Positions 758 to 26,447 of a stretch of 28,340 nucleotides of DNA are shown here, piece by piece. The stretch lies in IMG/VR virus record IMGVR_UViG_3300011339_000373, positions 1 through 28,340 of that record; one strand, given 5' to 3'. The notes under the pieces are model-generated. The model was not told the origin of the DNA. It was given only the letters and a program-made list of their open reading frames with translations, and ran no database searches. Source of the stretch: a virus. Taxonomy: Duplodnaviria > Caudoviricetes. Positions within the stretch are counted from its first letter, which is position 1. Every line of letters starts with the position of its first letter. Both the position numbers and the translations under genes were made by a program.

Positions 758-976
758 ATGACCAAATACTGTGTAAATTGCAAGCACTTCCGTCCCAAGG
801 TGGGGGACGAACATCACGAATACGCTCGCTGCTCTGTCAGTACGCGCAACAACCCCATCTCCCTTGTCACTGGTCAACCAACGTCTGCTTACCTATTGCC
901 GTATGCAGAAGTAATGCGGCTCACTGGCGAGGACAAGTGTGGCCCAGAAGCCCTATTCTTTGAGGAGCAATTCTAA
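758..976 (+). CDS. Small Cys-rich, probably Zn-binding, hypothetical protein
   Basis: CVNCKH plus two further Cys; TAATG coupling to the next gene. Confidence 0.75.
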   Translation: MTKYCVNCKHFRPKVGDEHHEYARCSVSTRNNPISLVTGQPTSAYLLPYAEVMRLTGEDKCGPEALFFEEQF

Positions 977-1872
977 TGTCTGACTTTTCCCCCCAAACCC
1001 GTAACAGTGCATGGTGGTCAGGCGATAGCCGCCTAGCTGCCCAAGGCAAAGCTAACGTGGCTATCTTGACCAAGCAGGGAAAGATGGAGCGTGAAGACCT
1101 TTCACAAGTGGAAGCTGTCCAGATGGGGCATGTGATGGAGCCGGTCATTGGAAGGCTGGCTCAATCCAAGCTAAAGGTTGAGTTGACCAAGATAGAGGAT
1201 GCCTTGACCCATCCTAAAGAAAGCTGGCTCCGTTCTCACTTTGACTTTGTAGGAAAAGAAAATGGTAAGACATTTCTGGTGGAAGCTAAGAACTACAACG
1301 CAGCAATGCGCTCTAAATTTGATGCTGATACTGGACTTATGCCAGTTGCAGATATGGCTCAAATTGTCCATGAGGCCACGGTCTATGGTTGCGATACTGT
1401 TTATCTGGCCGTGCTATTTGGTGGTCAGGAGTTCGTCCTTATTCCTCAACAAATTACTGAGCAGATGAAGGAAGACCATATAAAAGAGATGGCAGTCCTG
1501 TGGGCGCATGTAGTAAGCGGTACTGCTCTCCCCCCTGAGTCTGTTGACCAAGCAAGGGCGCTATACCCTGTGTCCTCAGAAGCTACCAAATTAGCCTCTG
1601 CAAGCGTGGAGCAAGCCGTACTCATGCTGGCGGCTATCAAGCGTGAGATTAAGGCCTTAGAAGACCGCGAAGACCAGTATCAAACGCTAGTGCAGGGTTA
1701 CATGGAAGACAAGGCAACCCTAGCATCTATAGATGGAAATGTCCTAGCTACTTGGAAGTCTGCCAAGTCATCTATGAAGTTTGACTCTAAGCTGTTTGAA
1801 AGTGCTATGCCTGACATTTACCGCCAGTTTGTGCGGGAGATGCCCGGTAGCCGCCGTTTCCTGATTAAGTGA
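976..1872 (+). CDS. YqaJ/lambda-exonuclease-like viral recombination exonuclease
   Basis: Motifs GHVMEPVI, HPKESWLRSHFD, LVEAK, Q..H, YLAVLFGGQEF; C-terminal coiled coil and LATWK...SRRFLIK tail typical of long YqaJ-like proteins. Confidence 0.88.
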   Translation: MSDFSPQTRNSAWWSGDSRLAAQGKANVAILTKQGKMEREDLSQVEAVQMGHVMEPVIGRLAQSKLKVELTKIEDALTHPKESWLRSHFDFVGKENGKTFLVEAKNYNAAMRSKFDADTGLMPVADMAQIVHEATVYGCDTVYLAVLFGGQEFVLIPQQITEQMKEDHIKEMAVLWAHVVSGTALPPESVDQARALYPVSSEATKLASASVEQAVLMLAAIKREIKALEDREDQYQTLVQGYMEDKATLASIDGNVLATWKSAKSSMKFDSKLFESAMPDIYRQFVREMPGSRRFLIK

Positions 1873-2072: not shown

Positions 2073-2278
2073 TAGACAAAGCCTATCCCTTTTCCCACAA
2101 GCATCCTACTACTGGACTAACCACCAGCAGCGAGGGAATGGACTTGCGAGACATATTTGCTATCGCAGCATTGCCTGTGGTGCATGAAATTAGTGGTGGG
2201 TTCTACCGCAAGAAAGCGGAAGATGCCTACCGATTAGCAGATGAAATGATGAGAGCAAGGAGAAAGACAAATGAGTAA
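2069..2278 (+). CDS. Hypothetical phage protein of the GMxLRDxFA...AYxLADxM type
   Basis: Recurrent small phage protein motif; overlaps both neighbours. Confidence 0.75.
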   Translation: MIDKAYPFSHKHPTTGLTTSSEGMDLRDIFAIAALPVVHEISGGFYRKKAEDAYRLADEMMRARRKTNE

Positions 2279-3107
2279 TATTATTCCCTACAACGACATG
2301 CAACAGATGGCAGAGGTAGCTGCCAGTAGCAAGATGTTTGGGTTCAAGAACCCGCAAGAGGCATTAGCAATCATGTTGCTGTGCCAAGGCGAAGGACTGC
2401 ACCCTGCTATCGCTATGCGTGACTATCACGTTATCCAAGGCCGTCCAGCACTGAAAGCAGATGCCATGCTTGCTAGATTCCAGCAAGCTGGTGGTGCAGT
2501 CAAGTGGGATGTCTACACTGACCAAGAGGTGACAGGCACGTTCTCACACCCTTCTGGTGGCAGCTTGGCTGTAACGTGGACTCTTACCCATGCCAAACAG
2601 ATAGGGATAGCTTCTAAAGATAACTGGAAGAACTATCCCCGTGCCATGCTCCGTGCGCGGTGTATCTCAGAAGGCATCCGTGCTGTCTATCCCGGCTGCG
2701 TGGTGGGTGTCTACACCCCGGAAGAGGTACAAGACTTCCAGCCAGCCCCTGTCGGTAAAGACATGGGAATGGTAGAGGAAGTAATAGCAGAACCAGACGG
2801 GGCTTTTGAACTATTTGTTCCCGGCAATGATGAGGCTTACAACCGCTTCCATACTGTTGAGCAATGGCTGGAGGCTTACGTCACTATGGTGGCCCGTATC
2901 ACTAAGTCTGCCAAGATGGATGAGGAACTGAAAGCAGAGAAGATTGATGGCCTCAAGGCTTGCAACATGAACATGCTGGACTCTCTGGACAACATGCTCA
3001 AGGTCAAGATGAAGGGCATGTTAGTCACTGCTGGAGTGTCTGTTAGCCCAAAGCCGGATACGCCCCCTCTAAGTCCCGGAGTGGTACACAGCGTGACAAT
3101 ATCCTAA
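2271..3107 (+). CDS. RecT/Redbeta-like single-strand annealing protein
   Basis: HVIQGRPALKADAM and NWKNYPRAMLRARCISEGIRAVYP...GVYTPEE motifs; adjacent to a YqaJ-like exonuclease. Confidence 0.8.
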   Translation: MSNIIPYNDMQQMAEVAASSKMFGFKNPQEALAIMLLCQGEGLHPAIAMRDYHVIQGRPALKADAMLARFQQAGGAVKWDVYTDQEVTGTFSHPSGGSLAVTWTLTHAKQIGIASKDNWKNYPRAMLRARCISEGIRAVYPGCVVGVYTPEEVQDFQPAPVGKDMGMVEEVIAEPDGAFELFVPGNDEAYNRFHTVEQWLEAYVTMVARITKSAKMDEELKAEKIDGLKACNMNMLDSLDNMLKVKMKGMLVTAGVSVSPKPDTPPLSPGVVHSVTIS

Positions 3108-3286
3108 GACACTTGGAAGCTGGCAAGGCAATCTCTCCTATAGAGGCACTGAATTTATACGGGAGTTTTCGCCTTGCTGCTCACATAGAAGTGTTGCGGA
3201 GAGAGGGATACAACATCTTTACCCACATGGTCAAGGCCAATGGTAAAGAGTACGCAAGTTATACGTTAACGAAAGGAAGAGTATGA
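3047..3286 (+). CDS. Winged helix-turn-helix domain (HTH_39-like) with no start codon of its own; probably expressed by -1 frameshift from the annealase
   Basis: Manual translation gives ...TQRDNILRHLEAGKAISPIEALNLYGSFRLAAHIEVLRREGYNIFTHMVKANGKEYASYTLTKGRV*. It fills the 3108-3282 gap and its stop overlaps the next ATG (ATGA). Confidence 0.8.
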   Translation, partial: PKAGYAPSKSRSGTQRDNILRHLEAGKAISPIEALNLYGSFRLAAHIEVLRREGYNIFTHMVKANGKEYASYTLTKGRV

Positions 3287-3603
3287 GCAATCAACATCGT
3301 GAGATGCCAGGGTCAGGAGTGGCCTACTGGGAAGAGGAAAAAAAGTCAGAGAAGGGGCCAGACTACAAAGGCTTCATAGTCCTAGAGATGGACTACAAAG
3401 CTGGAGAGAAGCTGAAGTTTGCCGTCTGGCAGCGCCCTACTTCCAAAGGCACAACCCTGCTGTCTTTCAAGGAAGACAACTGGACTAAGCGTAAGAAGGC
3501 AGAGGAGCATGAGGCTCATCGTTCAGAGGTTGTCGAGGTGGTTCCAGCTTACCGCAAGCATGTTCAGCCTAGCCGTGTTGATGACGATGACGTACCCTTC
3601 TGA
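3283..3603 (+). CDS. Putative single-stranded DNA-binding protein
   Basis: K-x-PDYKG motif, acidic C-terminal DDDDVPF tail typical of SSBs, recombination-module context. Confidence 0.7.
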   Translation: MSNQHREMPGSGVAYWEEEKKSEKGPDYKGFIVLEMDYKAGEKLKFAVWQRPTSKGTTLLSFKEDNWTKRKKAEEHEAHRSEVVEVVPAYRKHVQPSRVDDDDVPF

Positions 3604-4014: not shown

Positions 4015-4827
4015 ATGGCAAAAGGTGGATTGGTAGTGAAAAAGGCATCAACAAAGGTTGCAGCTAAGAAGGTAAAAGAGCCGGTAAAGCCCCATATCTT
4101 TGTGGCTACGCCTATGTATGGAGGTATGTGTACAGGATACTTCTGTAACTCATTGATTAACATGACAAATGTTATGAAGAATGTTGGATGGGATATGTCC
4201 TTCTCTAGCATGTTTAATGAGTCTCTCATCCAGCGTGGACGCAACGCTCTTGTCCACCAGTATCTGAAGACACCTTGCACCCATCTATTGTTCATTGACG
4301 CAGACATTAAGTTTGATGCCAACGACATTCCCTTGATGGTGCAAGCAGACAAGGACATCATCTGCGGCATCTACCCTAAGAAAGAAATCAACTGGCACGG
4401 GGTAGAGCAAGCAGTCAAGCAGGGTGTACCGCCGCAAGAACTCTCTAAGCGTACAGGTGCGCTGGTGGTTAACCTAGTGGGCTATCAAGGGGCCGTAACT
4501 GTCCCTGCGGACAAACCTGTAGAGATATGGGCTGGTGGTACTGGCTTTATGCTTATCAAGCGCCGTGTGTTTGACAAGCTGAAGAAGAAGGTAAATGCCT
4601 ACAACAATGATGTGGCTGTCCTGTCCAACACTATCCAGCCAGCAGAACGCATTACTGAATACTTTGCTTGCAGTATTGAGCCGGGTACAGAGCGTCTACT
4701 GTCAGAGGACTATCACTTCTGCCGGGTAGCGAGAGAGAACGGCATCAAGATACACGCAGCGCCGTGGGTACGTCTGGGCCACTTTGGAACATATCTTTTT
4801 GAGGGCGGCTTGCTGCCAGCACCATGA
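4015..4827 (+). CDS. GT-A fold glycosyltransferase-like protein
   Basis: IFVATPMYGG, ESLIQRGRN, THLLFIDADI (DxD), GTGFMLIKR, LSEDYHFC, LGHFG. Confidence 0.85.
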   Translation: MAKGGLVVKKASTKVAAKKVKEPVKPHIFVATPMYGGMCTGYFCNSLINMTNVMKNVGWDMSFSSMFNESLIQRGRNALVHQYLKTPCTHLLFIDADIKFDANDIPLMVQADKDIICGIYPKKEINWHGVEQAVKQGVPPQELSKRTGALVVNLVGYQGAVTVPADKPVEIWAGGTGFMLIKRRVFDKLKKKVNAYNNDVAVLSNTIQPAERITEYFACSIEPGTERLLSEDYHFCRVARENGIKIHAAPWVRLGHFGTYLFEGGLLPAP

Positions 4828-5381
4828 AATTCTCACAAGATTGGTTTACTGAAAACATTCCCAACTTTGAGGCTTGCGCTGCCAAGCTGCCAAGCAACAG
4901 TTCATTCTTAGAGATAGGAAGTTTTGAGGGCATGTCAACGTGTTGGATGCTCCAGAACATGCTGTCCTATGATGGTGAACTGGTCTGCGTGGATACCTTT
5001 GATGGGGGGGATGAATACGCTGGTATTGACCTTTCTGACCTACGCACTACCTTTGACTCTAACGTGGAAGAAGCAGCAGATGAGAACCAATCCATAGAGG
5101 TCTTAGCCAAGACTTCTTGGGAGGCTTTGAGCGAGTTGGTGTATTTGGATTTCACGTTTGATTTCATTTATCTGGATGGCAGCCACAAAACACCAGAGGT
5201 TCTGTTAGATGCTTGTCTTGCATTTAAGTTGTTAGAGCCAAAAGGCGTAATGCTTTTTGACGATTACGGCGGTGGTGCTGGCGTAGGTGCAGCAGTAGAT
5301 GCCTTCTTAGAGGCATACAAGGGGCAGTACAAAGTAATTCTAAAGAATTACCAGTTAGCCATTCAGAAGACTAGCGTTTAG
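4824..5381 (+). CDS. Class I SAM-dependent methyltransferase (Methyltransf_24-like)
   Basis: LEIGSFEG, CVDTF, FDFIYLDGSH, GVMLFDDY motifs. Confidence 0.88.
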   Translation: MKFSQDWFTENIPNFEACAAKLPSNSSFLEIGSFEGMSTCWMLQNMLSYDGELVCVDTFDGGDEYAGIDLSDLRTTFDSNVEEAADENQSIEVLAKTSWEALSELVYLDFTFDFIYLDGSHKTPEVLLDACLAFKLLEPKGVMLFDDYGGGAGVGAAVDAFLEAYKGQYKVILKNYQLAIQKTSV

Positions 5382-8061: not shown

Positions 8062-9435
8062 TTAATCCTGTCGTTTTGCTGGCAAAAGAGTATTTGCTTG
8101 CAAGTATTGTTGAGCGGGGGCAAGGGTTTGGGCAGTACCAGCAACGCCAGCCCCTCTCATCGGAACGCTTCGCTGCATAATTGTTCCCAATCCTTTTGAT
8201 AACGGGCTTTCTGTTGCAGATGCTAAAGCAGCACTTAAACCACCTGTAGGTTTAATTACTTGGGATTTTAAAATGTCGCCAAGTTCTCCCAAGTCTTTAT
8301 ACAGTGGATTAGAAGCCGCCCTACCACCTGTTCTGCGAGTAATCTCATCAAGCAACTTTTCTGGGTTAACTTGACCAGAAGCAGTGATGCCTGTCTTGCC
8401 TTCTAGCTGAATTAAGTCACTGATAGCAGACCAAGAGTTGTACTTTTTTCTCCATGCGTCATATTGTTTTGCCTCTGCACCTGTAAGATTTTTAGAAGCA
8501 AGTTCTTCTAAAGCATCTTTCAAATCATGCAAGACTTTTGCTTGTGGGCCTTTTGCACCAGACAATGCTGAGTTAACTTGAGTAATTGCTCCGCGCAAAT
8601 CTTCAGCTTTGAACTGAGGACTTAAAAGTTCACCGCCAGCACGTTGACCACCAATGTTCTTTTCAATAATTGTCCTAGCAGTGTTTCCTTGTTGACCAAA
8701 AATACTTTCAGCTTCATTGACAATATCTTGTATTTTTTGTGGAAAACCCGGTTTTGATGTAAATGTTTTTCCGGCGAACAAACGTCCTACTTCATTTCCA
8801 AGTTCAGCTTGCGTCTGTTCTACCCATGCCGCATTAACATTAGTTGTTGGTTTTCCAGCCCGTGCAGTAGCTTCTTCAGTAAATTTATCTAGATTTCTAA
8901 TGGCGCTCTGTGGAGTGCCACCAGAACCATATTTCATGCCTTGTGTAGCTTTTGCACCATAATCAATTTCATAACCTAAATTTTTTGCTTTTTTAGCTAA
9001 AACAGCAAGTGGCTTTTGAACGTACCCAAGAGTCCTACCCAAAACATCCGCAGTTCCTTGACCAACACCACCACCAACTATTTCAGCAACTGGTTGATAT
9101 GACTCAGGAACACCAACTTCTTCAGCAAGTTGTCCAAGTCCTGTTGCTCCTAAAAAACCAAGAGTAGAAGGAATGCCACCAGTAAAAGGAGCAGAACCTA
9201 AAGCATAAGGAAGATTACGCGCTGCTCTGCGAGTTAGTCTTTCTGTAAAAGTTTTTGGTTTTGGCAAACCAGCTTGCTCTGCAATTTTTTCACCAGTAAA
9301 CGGAACGGCCTCTGCTAATCCTCTTGCAGCAGCTTGTGTAGCGCCCTTAAACCCGCCAGCAGATTTGGGTGGCGGTAACAGTTCTACTCCGTCAGCAGAC
9401 TTAGGTGGAGGCAATAGTTCTATTTCATCAGACAT
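8062..9435 (-). CDS. Putative internal virion/DNA ejection protein
   Basis: 457 aa, Ala/Gly-rich helical with hydrophobic glycine segments; lies after the tail genes. Confidence 0.6.
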   Translation of the reverse strand: MSDEIELLPPPKSADGVELLPPPKSAGGFKGATQAAARGLAEAVPFTGEKIAEQAGLPKPKTFTERLTRRAARNLPYALGSAPFTGGIPSTLGFLGATGLGQLAEEVGVPESYQPVAEIVGGGVGQGTADVLGRTLGYVQKPLAVLAKKAKNLGYEIDYGAKATQGMKYGSGGTPQSAIRNLDKFTEEATARAGKPTTNVNAAWVEQTQAELGNEVGRLFAGKTFTSKPGFPQKIQDIVNEAESIFGQQGNTARTIIEKNIGGQRAGGELLSPQFKAEDLRGAITQVNSALSGAKGPQAKVLHDLKDALEELASKNLTGAEAKQYDAWRKKYNSWSAISDLIQLEGKTGITASGQVNPEKLLDEITRRTGGRAASNPLYKDLGELGDILKSQVIKPTGGLSAALASATESPLSKGLGTIMQRSVPMRGAGVAGTAQTLAPAQQYLQANTLLPAKRQD

Positions 9436-23905: not shown

Positions 23906-24373
23906 TTACATTGGGGGGGGTTGTGGTGCGCCGGGTGAGGGCATACCGGGAATCGGCGCGCTTGCCATTGCTTTTCCCTCTGGGCTTGCGCCACCAGCTT
24001 GAGGTAGAGTTTGCAGCATTTGCAGAATCTCTGATTGCTGCAACTCATTGGTTTTGTTCTTGCGTGGCCCCATGAGGCCCGTCAGCGAACGAATAGCAGC
24101 CAATGCTTTTTGGCCTTCTACAGATTCTGAACCAAGTGCGGGAAGGGACTGCTCTAGCAAGTCCATTGCCATGCCAACATTAATCATGGCAGCTTCTTTG
24201 CTGCCCATCTTAGGTTCTGGAGTAGACATAGGTGAGGACATTGGAGGCGTTTCCGCATCCGACATCGCACCAGCACCGCCGGGAATTTCACCGGGAGGGG
24301 GGGCTGGCACAGGCGCACCCGCTGAGCGGTCACCCTTCATTAACTCCATCAATTTATCTGACGGTACACCCAT
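23906..24373 (-). CDS. Pro/Met-rich hypothetical head-module protein
   Basis: AAGGAG RBS before ATG 24373. Confidence 0.75.
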   Translation of the reverse strand: MGVPSDKLMELMKGDRSAGAPVPAPPPGEIPGGAGAMSDAETPPMSSPMSTPEPKMGSKEAAMINVGMAMDLLEQSLPALGSESVEGQKALAAIRSLTGLMGPRKNKTNELQQSEILQMLQTLPQAGGASPEGKAMASAPIPGMPSPGAPQPPPM

Positions 24374-24490: not shown

Positions 24491-24529
24491 TTACTTGCGA
24501 GACTTACGTCCTTTACGACCTTTACGCAT
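24491..24529 (-). CDS. 12-aa basic micropeptide MRKGRKGRKSRK
   Basis: AAGGAG RBS 6 nt upstream of the ATG; hairpin overlapping the stop. Confidence 0.65.
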   Translation of the reverse strand: MRKGRKGRKSRK

Positions 24530-24599
24530 AGTGCGCTCCTTCATCAAGGCGGCCACTTACTTTATAGGGGAAGCAGCCATACCCTTTCCTTACGGAACC

Positions 24600-24641
24600 T
24601 TACCGGCGAGTCTTCCGACCCCGTTTGTGTGCTTTGTACAT
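24600..24641 (-). CDS. 13-aa basic micropeptide MYKAHKRGRKTRR
   Basis: GGAG RBS 6 nt upstream of the ATG; followed by a TTCC-GTAA-GGAA hairpin. Confidence 0.6.
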   Translation of the reverse strand: MYKAHKRGRKTRR

Positions 24642-24828: not shown

Positions 24829-26447
24829 TATTGCTCCTTTGGGGGTGCTTTTTCCTTGGGCGGGGGCTGTTGGGCGGCTTTTTCCGCTTGTTTTTGCTCC
24901 ATTACCTTCAGTCTATCTTTGAGCAATTGTTTCATTGGTGGCTCAAGTAAGTCAAGCAGAGATTCTTTGTCAATAACTTGTGCCTTGAACAAATTGAAGG
25001 CCAACTGGCGCAAATCTTCCATAAAGATGGGCGAATTGCTGTGTGCATCTACTTTGACCACAAAATCCTTGGTGAACTGCTCGGCAATGAACGGTGTACC
25101 CTTTACATCCTTGAAATGGGTGTTGTCATAGGCTTGCATACACTTGAGGTACAAGGTAGCCAGTTTTTCTAAGCTGTCTTCAATGACTAACGCCCGTTTT
25201 TTGGCACGGCTAGAGCCTAGACGAGCAAGTTGGCTGGCGTGACCAGTAGAGCGCACCCCGGATTCGCCCTTGCCTTGAAGGATAGACGAAATACCAGATG
25301 CCTCTTCAAACATGGCATCAATCTCACCAATCTCTTTGAACAAGTCAGGCGGGATAGTAGGTGCTAGTTTCTCTACCTTGGCATTTGGCATGTCAGTTGC
25401 CAATAGTCCACCAGCGCGGTTGAGGGCAAAATTCTTTTCGTCTAGGATGCCGGTAAAGCCAATCAGGGCGGTAGGCGGCGATACCTGTTTACTCAGCAAG
25501 TCTAAGATTTCAGACATACGCTTAGTGCGTAGCTGCTGCAAGTAAATCAGACGGGCAACTTCAGATGTTCCCCAGAAATAATCGTATTGTGGGTTAGGAC
25601 AGATTTGGACAAAAGGCAACTCGCCTTTCAAGAACACAGATTCTCCGGGGCGGTCATAGATGATGATGTCCGGCTCTGCTCTGGTGACAACCTGATAGTC
25701 ACTGGTGTCATCGTTCCACACCCACAACTCTGTCATTTCCACTGTCTCTTCCGCAACAACAGCCTTGTACCTATTCATGCCGGACAAATCCAGATTGACG
25801 TTACCGTACATAGTGGGGTTGCTGGCAGAGAGAATAATTTTCTCTACGCCGTTAGAAACTTCTGTGCGCTCATGCTGCGTTGCGCTGACACGCTTAACAA
25901 TCTTGTCCCGCTTCGGGTGCGAGTACAAACGGGCATACAACTCTGACTTGGTGATGTAGTACGTCTGGACAATTGCTTCTTGTCTGTCAGTGTACGGGCT
26001 GTCTTCTCGCAACACACCCATGCAACCCGGCTCCACCATGTAGGGGTGGATACCGTTGTTCATGATTATTTTTACAAACGTAGAACTGTAAGCCAGTGAC
26101 CAAGAAACTGCTTGCGAGAAAACTTGGTCAGCATTGCTGTTGAGCCACTCATCATTGAGCGCACGGGTCAGCGTTGGAATCTTGGTGTGTTCTGCTTCAT
26201 TGACGGCAGCACCAATATTGATACTGAACCTTGTTGTTTCTGCTGAGTACAGGAAGGAAGTCAGTTGGTCAATGTGTGGAAAGATTTTGTTGTACAGGGC
26301 CGGGGTTTCACTTGGCCCGTTTCCAAACAAATACCAACTCCGCAGCGCCGCATAGTCAGGCTTGCGTTCATCCCTTGACACCAGACACTTTTGTATCAGG
26401 TCAAGGTAGAAAAGTTCCCTGTCTAGTGGTGCTGATGGAATTTTCAT
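24828..26447 (-). CDS. Portal protein
   Basis: 539 aa, between terminase and capsid; LPFVQI...YFWG, ASGISSILQG, Pro/Gln/Lys tail. Confidence 0.85.
   Translation of the reverse strand: MKIPSAPLDRELFYLDLIQKCLVSRDERKPDYAALRSWYLFGNGPSETPALYNKIFPHIDQLTSFLYSAETTRFSINIGAAVNEAEHTKIPTLTRALNDEWLNSNADQVFSQAVSWSLAYSSTFVKIIMNNGIHPYMVEPGCMGVLREDSPYTDRQEAIVQTYYITKSELYARLYSHPKRDKIVKRVSATQHERTEVSNGVEKIILSASNPTMYGNVNLDLSGMNRYKAVVAEETVEMTELWVWNDDTSDYQVVTRAEPDIIIYDRPGESVFLKGELPFVQICPNPQYDYFWGTSEVARLIYLQQLRTKRMSEILDLLSKQVSPPTALIGFTGILDEKNFALNRAGGLLATDMPNAKVEKLAPTIPPDLFKEIGEIDAMFEEASGISSILQGKGESGVRSTGHASQLARLGSSRAKKRALVIEDSLEKLATLYLKCMQAYDNTHFKDVKGTPFIAEQFTKDFVVKVDAHSNSPIFMEDLRQLAFNLFKAQVIDKESLLDLLEPPMKQLLKDRLKVMEQKQAEKAAQQPPPKEKAPPKEQ

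Follow-up and report, generated by a model that had tools for sequence, protein, structure and literature searches.

Programmed −1 ribosomal frameshifting is a mechanism already known from dnaX, the IS3 elements, copA and the phage tail chaperones; the slippery site of copA is CCCAAAG, and IS3 elements carry an N-terminal helix-turn-helix (HTH) in OrfA, to which the frameshift adds the catalytic domain. The most efficient slippery motifs in E. coli are C_CC.A_AA.G, G_GG.A_AA.G and A_AA.A_AA.G (Sharma 2014; PMC4066793), of which the first reaches up to 54% in combination with the IS3 pseudoknot, and an element resembling the Shine-Dalgarno (SD) motif and located 6-17 nt upstream has served as the criterion for SD stimulation (PMC4066793). 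A stem-loop or pseudoknot on the 3′ side belongs to the dnaX and IS911 signals, but not to every prokaryotic one. Phage annealases, for their part, oligomerise via their N-terminal domain, bind exonuclease and SSB through their C-terminal domain, and have been proposed to act in replication and concatemer formation (PMC11611040).

The window analysed here, that is, the full 28,340-nt stretch of IMG/VR record IMGVR_UViG_3300011339_000373, derives from a tailed phage with an estimated completeness of 80%. The record's sequence is found in river and lake metagenome runs, and the freshwater lineage is abundant, with annealase clusters numbering 6,846 among the 8,000 scored. As judged from sequence comparison, the annealase gene of its recombination module likely ends in an SD-stimulated programmed −1 ribosomal frameshift, giving a 278-aa and a 338-aa form of the protein. 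The relevant features are as follows:

976..1872, + strand: YqaJ/RecE-like exonuclease (PF09588, E 2.4e-7; phrog_434, E 3e-41)
2271..3107, + strand: RecT/Redβ-like annealase, 278 aa (phrog_561, E 2e-23; PF03837, E 1.9e-4)
3033..3036, + strand: internal Shine-Dalgarno-like GGAG, predicted 5′ stimulator, 10 nt before the heptamer
3044..3046, + strand: TAG closing the −1 frame right before the heptamer
3047..3053, + strand: slippery heptamer C_CCA_AAG (Ser-Pro-Lys in the annealase frame), the predicted site of the −1 shift
3047..3286, + strand: start-less −1 frame ORF encoding a short linker and an HTH_39 winged helix (PF14090, E 1.3e-10)
3283..3603, + strand: SSB-like gene with an acidic C-terminal tail (phrog_18154, E 0.005, a weak match)

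The exonuclease is likely the partner of the annealase. Against the Pfam RecT family (PF03837) the annealase scores 21.5 bits, under the cut-off of 24, and it is laid out as an annealing domain (residues ~1-155), a linker, a helical C-terminal domain (~178-255) and a 17-aa tail after Lys261. The N-terminal domain of Redβ (7ujl) ranks top for its structural model in both Foldseek (E 0.003) and VIA-align (Z 6.0, rmsd 2.8, 79 aligned), with modest scores, and RecT, Rad52 and Sak are also among the structure matches. Together, the modelled fold, the profile match and the partner exonuclease in the operon point to membership of the RecT/Redβ/Rad52 superfamily; as in λ Redβ and RecT, an annealing-domain fold, a nearby partner exonuclease and a separate helical C-terminal domain are present, the latter with no family match and no clear fold match. 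In 102 of 117 junctions the next ORF after the HTH is SSB-like, and in the window the HTH stop overlaps the SSB-like ATG (ATGA, 3283-3286).

The annealase stop lies at 3105-3107, and the TAG immediately before the heptamer closes the −1 frame, so that an upstream start for the HTH is excluded. Shifting by −1 at C_CCA_AAG would fuse 261 residues of the annealase with 77 from the −1 frame, the predicted products being 278 aa (30.4 kDa) and 338 aa (37.3 kDa) long, and would exchange an acidic 17-residue tail (pI 5.1) for 77 residues of basic character (pI 10.0). One gene would therefore encode two protein forms, with some ribosomes slipping back by one base and thus adding a domain that has no start of its own. 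By extension from the E. coli cases, tRNA-Pro and tRNA-Lys would re-pair from CCA AAG to CCC AAA while 16S rRNA pairs with the internal SD, and a fraction of ribosomes would trade the short acidic tail for the basic winged-helix domain. The positions given in the original prediction for the GGAG, the TAG and the heptamer, together with the 10-nt spacing and the ATGA overlap, all proved correct, and its phasing of C_CCA_AAG in the annealase frame is, by conservation in relatives, more than chance.

This arrangement resembles that of E. coli dnaX, in which a heptamer ending in A_AAG likewise follows an internal SD 10 nt upstream and one gene likewise provides long and short forms (tau and gamma) of a DNA-metabolism protein (PMC5009743). 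The dnaX shift, however, truncates its product and uses a 3′ stem-loop, whereas that of the annealase would lengthen its product by an entire domain, and a search for a conserved stem-loop gave none. With the IS3 family (IS911, IS3) the locus shares the motif hierarchy and the upstream SD stimulator (PMC4066793), as well as a shift that fuses two ORFs of a DNA-rearranging protein; unlike in IS3, the HTH forms the C-terminal addition here, and what it is added to is a phage annealase. E. coli copA/CopZ is similarly an efficient bacterial frameshift with two products (PMC9548414, PMC7558416), but it truncates a host transporter with the help of a pseudoknot and the nascent chain, in which the annealase shift would differ. 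Finally, λ gpG/gpGT and the capsid and tail extensions also rely on a −1 shift near the gene end that places a C-terminal domain on a minority of subunits (PMC5009743), and the G_GGA_AAG used by HCTV-5 g-t recurs at two of the junctions described below; shifts of this type act in virion assembly genes, whereas that of the annealase would act in an exonuclease-annealase-SSB module. By analogy, the present signal would work like that of dnaX or IS911, short of a demonstrated 3′ element. No account of a frameshifted annealase was found in the literature, where supplementary cluster tables could still list one: term searches of the accessible text of PMC3711429, PMC10885494 and PMC11611040 returned no passage on the subject, and in the last of these, a 2023 review of annealases, the terms ‘frameshift’ and ‘winged’ are absent from the text searched. 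The locus would extend phage ribosomal frameshifting from virion-assembly genes to a recombination/replication module.

The domain encoded in the −1 frame scores 41.4 bits against HTH_39 (cut-off 21.3), and its model, with three helices and a beta-hairpin (pLDDT 85), is a confident winged helix (wHTH) with other wHTH folds as neighbors, the closest of which include MarR/PadR regulators and a Sulfolobus plasmid-virus protein; the claim that a complete HTH_39-like domain resides there is thereby borne out, and no solved structure was found among its sequence relatives. The domain is also start-less, as claimed: no ATG, GTG or TTG occurs in the −1 frame of the window before TTG 3113, which encodes residue 23 and lies within the first predicted helix (residues 15-24). 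Neither ATG, GTG nor TTG is present between the upstream −1 stop and the HTH domain in 103 of 117 junctions, while 49 of 50 distinct HTH genes in annealase-free loci have an ATG or GTG, the remaining one being a cut locus with a heptamer. Gene callers miss or shorten such an HTH, and GenBank entry MW202825.1 annotates only its last 37 residues.

Alignment of related loci revealed conservation of the XXXYYYZ pattern, of an SD-like site upstream of it and of the start-less HTH. A first set was made up of the window, the 80 best of 304 loci retrieved by the annealase alone and the 80 best of 181 retrieved by the HTH; in all 161 loci, which represent 83 distinct junctions, the HTH lies in the −1 frame behind an in-phase heptamer, and the first six heptamer columns of the alignment are invariant where the nine preceding columns carry 0.2-0.5 bit. 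A wider sample of 422 loci, after removal of 60 without an annealase and 9 that were cut, left 353 loci with 231 distinct 3′ ends, 118 of them HTH-linked and every one in the −1 frame with X_XXA_AAR. From an additional 195 loci (81 duplicates and 28 cut loci dropped) came 86 new 3′ ends, 26 of which are HTH-linked, 22 with a perfect heptamer. Overall, the HTH is in the −1 frame in 144/144 distinct annealase-HTH junctions and a perfect in-phase X_XXA_AAR is present in 140/144, counts that overstate independence because the junctions are related: the 111 full-length linked annealases from the 422-locus sample form 33 groups when clustered at 80% identity and 9 when clustered at 60%, and the heptamer is found in all 33 representatives of the former. 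By type, the heptamers read CCCAAAG (117), CCCAAAA (7), AAAAAAG (14) and GGGAAAG (2), such that the first triplet swaps as a block between CCC (124), AAA (14) and GGG (2) and the amino acid varies (Pro, Lys, Gly) while the slippery pattern stays constant. The four exceptions comprise three with G_GAA_AAG after an SD-like site and a CTG at the old start, and one with its own GTG. In loci L347, L353 and L362 the annealase stop directly follows the heptamer on its 3′ side and could itself stimulate shifting.

Upstream of the heptamer an SD-like site is present in 91% of the 33 representatives, vs. 6-27% in windows farther upstream, with anti-SD pairing peaking 9-21 nt before the heptamer (mean duplex −7.9 kcal/mol) and an SD-heptamer spacing of 10-11 nt in 23 of the 33; at 10 nt, the GGAG of the window falls inside the 6-17 nt range for SD stimulation. 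On the 3′ side, the hairpin proposed at 3062-3085 folds no better than shuffled sequences (z 0.28 and −0.20), and RNAalifold returned no consensus pairs in a pseudoknot-free fold of the junction alignment. A candidate GTCCC/GGNAC helix is 73.6% paired vs. 71.7% when shuffled, with covariation equalled by 84 of 500 shuffles, and was rejected as a 3′ stimulator, since Val-Pro and Gly-Thr codons in the −1 frame account for the match; folding downstream of the heptamer exceeds background only slightly (mean z −0.43 and −0.73, against −0.17 and 0.06 in controls). Of the dnaX/IS3-like architecture put forward for the locus, the SD and heptamer thus hold, but the 3′ hairpin, for which neither folding nor covariation speaks, does not, and the signal looks like an SD plus heptamer rather than the full three-part cassette of dnaX. 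Because no conserved 3′ stimulator was found, frameshift efficiency may be low.

Pro-Lys coding cannot explain the heptamer, because only 41 of 445 other Pro codons stand in a C-CCA context and only 1 of 19 other Pro-Lys pairs reads CCCAAAG; in addition, 84 of 98 annealases that share the C-terminal domain but are devoid of the HTH have no heptamer. Across 98 junctions of equal spacing, compared in pairs that are non-independent, the 0-frame synonymous share of codon differences drops from 0.22 upstream to 0.09 in the overlap, and the −1-frame share rises from 0.04 upstream of the heptamer to 0.22 in the overlap. Synonymous change hence switches frame at the heptamer, which points to selection on the −1 ORF and to a signal kept beyond amino-acid constraint. 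These results bear on the possibility that the HTH is translated alone, through reinitiation that uses either TTG 3113 or some near-cognate codon, with the heptamer kept for protein reasons. Such reinitiation could draw on the position of TTG 3113 only 5 nt after the annealase stop and on the seven junctions with an ATG, and one with a GTG, at the start of the HTH domain; yet the corresponding Leu reads TTG in only 38 of 117 junctions, initiation there would remove most of helix 1, and, with Pro-Lys coding unable to fix C-CCA, the AAA and GGG variants and the SD spacing would be left unexplained, so that we regard it as highly improbable. Elsewhere in the window, a second in-phase CCCAAAG with an SD-like site occurs at the 3′ end of the portal gene (24837-24843, − strand); it was rejected as a frameshift site and is probably due to chance, without conservation in relatives, as CCCAAAG recurs in 2 of 63 distinct portal ends and any such heptamer in 5 of 63. 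Also on the − strand are an in-phase GGGAAAA at 23972-23978, with an SD-like site upstream and a −1 frame open for 51 codons, and an in-phase TTTAAAA heptamer at 8266-8272, again with an SD-like site upstream.

The idea that an in-frame fusion gene was split, whether by an assembly error of one base or by a recent indel that made it a pseudogene, is hardly credible. Contigs of two other runs, X9 and X11, neither of them flagged as a potential source, cover positions 2700-3180 and 2700-3193, respectively, with no differences and no gaps, which answers the concern over a 1-nt error raised in the original prediction, and the −1 arrangement is common to all 144 junctions. One database protein from one contig, P0003, does join annealase and HTH in frame; its frame change, however, falls ~30 codons upstream of the heptamer, too early for such a split, and it was rejected as a genuine fusion and treated as a probable error. 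Six longer HTH proteins were likewise dismissed as fusions, none of them matching an annealase family. In-frame annealase-HTH fusions, which had been considered a possible finding in homologs, were thus not credibly found among the 144 junctions, the top 120 annealase matches or the longer HTH proteins, an absence that is weak given the search's size of only 8,000 scored candidates. Sequence comparison alone cannot separate a ribosomal shift from transcriptional slippage that adds one base and yields the same fusion, and slippage of this kind is used by T. thermophilus dnaX (PMC5009743). It is nonetheless very improbable here, even more so than reinitiation: the base runs are only 3+3, the fixed-spacing SD-like site and codon-phased heptamers favor the ribosome, and a relative's contig from an RNA library runs across the site with no indel listed there, although contigs hide minority forms and give no measure of expression level. 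In light of the conserved heptamer, the SD-like site upstream of it, the start-less HTH and the lack of an indel, the comparative tests favor a programmed −1 ribosomal frameshift, as originally predicted.

Independent starts for the HTH, which in homologs devoid of the heptamer were expected to speak against a frameshift, do occur in part. Seven junctions (L207, L209, L383, L516, L520, L525 and L529) keep an ATGA-coupled HTH start, but together with the heptamer, and in these the HTH may be made alone; L646 has its own GTG and no perfect heptamer. In L512-L514 the ATG is replaced by CTG alongside G_GAA_AAG, and a CTG also stands in place of the HTH ATG in a close relative of one ATG-retaining group. 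Since a gene coupled through an ATGA overlap is from the outset in the −1 frame, a likely path leads from a coupled gene through a shift site to start loss: a free HTH gene, once ATGA-coupled, would have gained the upstream shift site and then lost its ATG, in what we infer to be this order. A quick tree of 68 annealases requires 9 changes of the HTH label, at least 6 of them forced by well-supported branches, and the HTH tail has therefore been repeatedly lost, gained or exchanged; L383, which has a different N-terminal domain, sits on a branch that cannot be placed. The comparison suggests that a CTD-HTH-SSB block, CTD being the annealase C-terminal domain, moves between genes. In L383 (1144-1995) the different N-terminal domain is joined to the same C-terminal domain and HTH.

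The HTH is absent from many members of the annealase family, and among the 14 such ends with a heptamer, 10 have CCCAAAC or CCCAAAG, in most cases preceded by an SD-like site, and continue into other −1 tails. The largest group, a sister clade, counts 31 distinct junctions with GGGGAGG and CCCAAAC (27) or CCCAAAG (4), followed by a conserved −1 frame of 59-60 codons in which the sole candidate start codon reads GTG at 16 junctions and GTA at 15. As 15 of the 31 thus have GTA where the others could start with GTG, this L214-type tail is probably also frameshift-expressed, and the signal would thus persist with a different payload. Its ~59-aa tail has no match among PHROG families, and the alternative −1 tails in general gave no family match and no clear fold match. 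Different conserved −1 tails of 51-85 aa are seen in L214 (2783-2962) and its 30 related junctions, as well as in L211, L166, L196 and L221. The family appears to hold each stage in the birth of a frameshift from two ATGA-coupled genes, plus a tail swap, by which the origin of recoding signals becomes directly testable.

Both predicted protein forms keep both annealase domains, and mixed oligomers are therefore expected. We propose that the 278-aa and 338-aa forms would co-assemble through the shared annealing domain, that the minority wHTH subunits would tether the oligomer to double-stranded phage DNA beside the single strands made by the exonuclease, and that the tethered oligomer would serve recombination-dependent replication or concatemer formation, a scheme whose chances we put at about even. 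Of the roles considered, DNA tethering by minority subunits would be the likeliest, followed by protein binding and regulation. The origin- or site-directed role that the original prediction suggested for the fusion is likewise hypothetical; no wHTH binding site or partner was identified, and comparison of non-coding DNA in three complete relatives was uninformative.

Somewhat unlikely, with the frameshift itself real, is a wHTH that acts as a protein-binding module, which would take hold of the exonuclease, of the phage SSB or of a protein of the host replisome and so load the annealase on coated single-stranded DNA. Such a module would fit the binding of exonuclease and SSB by annealase C-terminal domains (PMC11611040), the acidic-tailed SSB-like gene after the HTH in 102 of 117 junctions, the basic character of the added domain, and the appending of a non-HTH peptide instead in the sister clade. 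It would also fit the recognition helix, where the linked HTH mostly reads RLAAHI (102/117) and free relatives most often RLAARI, with the loss of a basic residue. Conversely, free HTH_39 genes are common and small, the closest folds of the model include the MarR/PadR regulators and the Sulfolobus plasmid-virus protein noted above, and the same type of SSB is also present without the HTH. That free HTH_39 proteins resemble small regulators and lie near recombination operons in other phages would instead suit a regulatory role of the frameshift, either through a fusion acting as repressor or activator and produced at a fixed ratio to annealase or through shifted ribosomes that set SSB translation at the ATGA, where the HTH stop of the window overlaps the SSB start. 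We consider this unlikely, as the HTH stop-SSB start distance ranges from −20 to +10 nt with ATGA in only 8 of 102 cases, and the wHTH is conserved in relatives as a folded domain, which translation coupling alone would not require.

Beyond tethering, the annealase 3′ end could be a modular recoding cassette that adds interchangeable targeting tails (the wHTH in most phages, the unrelated ~59-aa peptide in the sister clade) to a set fraction of subunits, with the wHTH subunits directing site-specific annealing as a replication initiator and the protein thus being a sequence-targeted annealase, a proposal that we regard as doubtful. In two relatives with terminal repeats, estimated to be complete, 66 of 120 called ORFs, chiefly on the early strand, were scanned against PHROGs and 46 against Pfam; no match to primase, helicase, initiator or integrase families was found among the scanned ORFs, many of which are matchless, and one is sliding-clamp-like with a marginal polymerase-family match. 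The annotation of MW202825.1 likewise lists none of these four, and an initiator of an unrecognised type may be present. For recombineering, a natural annealase whose DNA-binding domain is optional would be of interest.

Several further features of these genomes were observed. The early genes of relatives include an ORF resembling a sliding clamp (G004) and another resembling the alpha-CTD of RNA polymerase (G005) (L505:8400-9029; L507:10320-10709). In many relatives, the gene downstream of portal is followed by two very short ORFs rich in Arg and Lys and by an intergenic stretch that is conserved (window 24501-24621, − strand; L425-L503). Behind the recombination module, window positions 4015-5381 hold a glycosyltransferase-like gene (phrog_1574) and a methyltransferase, and the gene in the matching position of MW202753.1 is annotated as dpG-synthase-like, a hint of DNA or surface modification.
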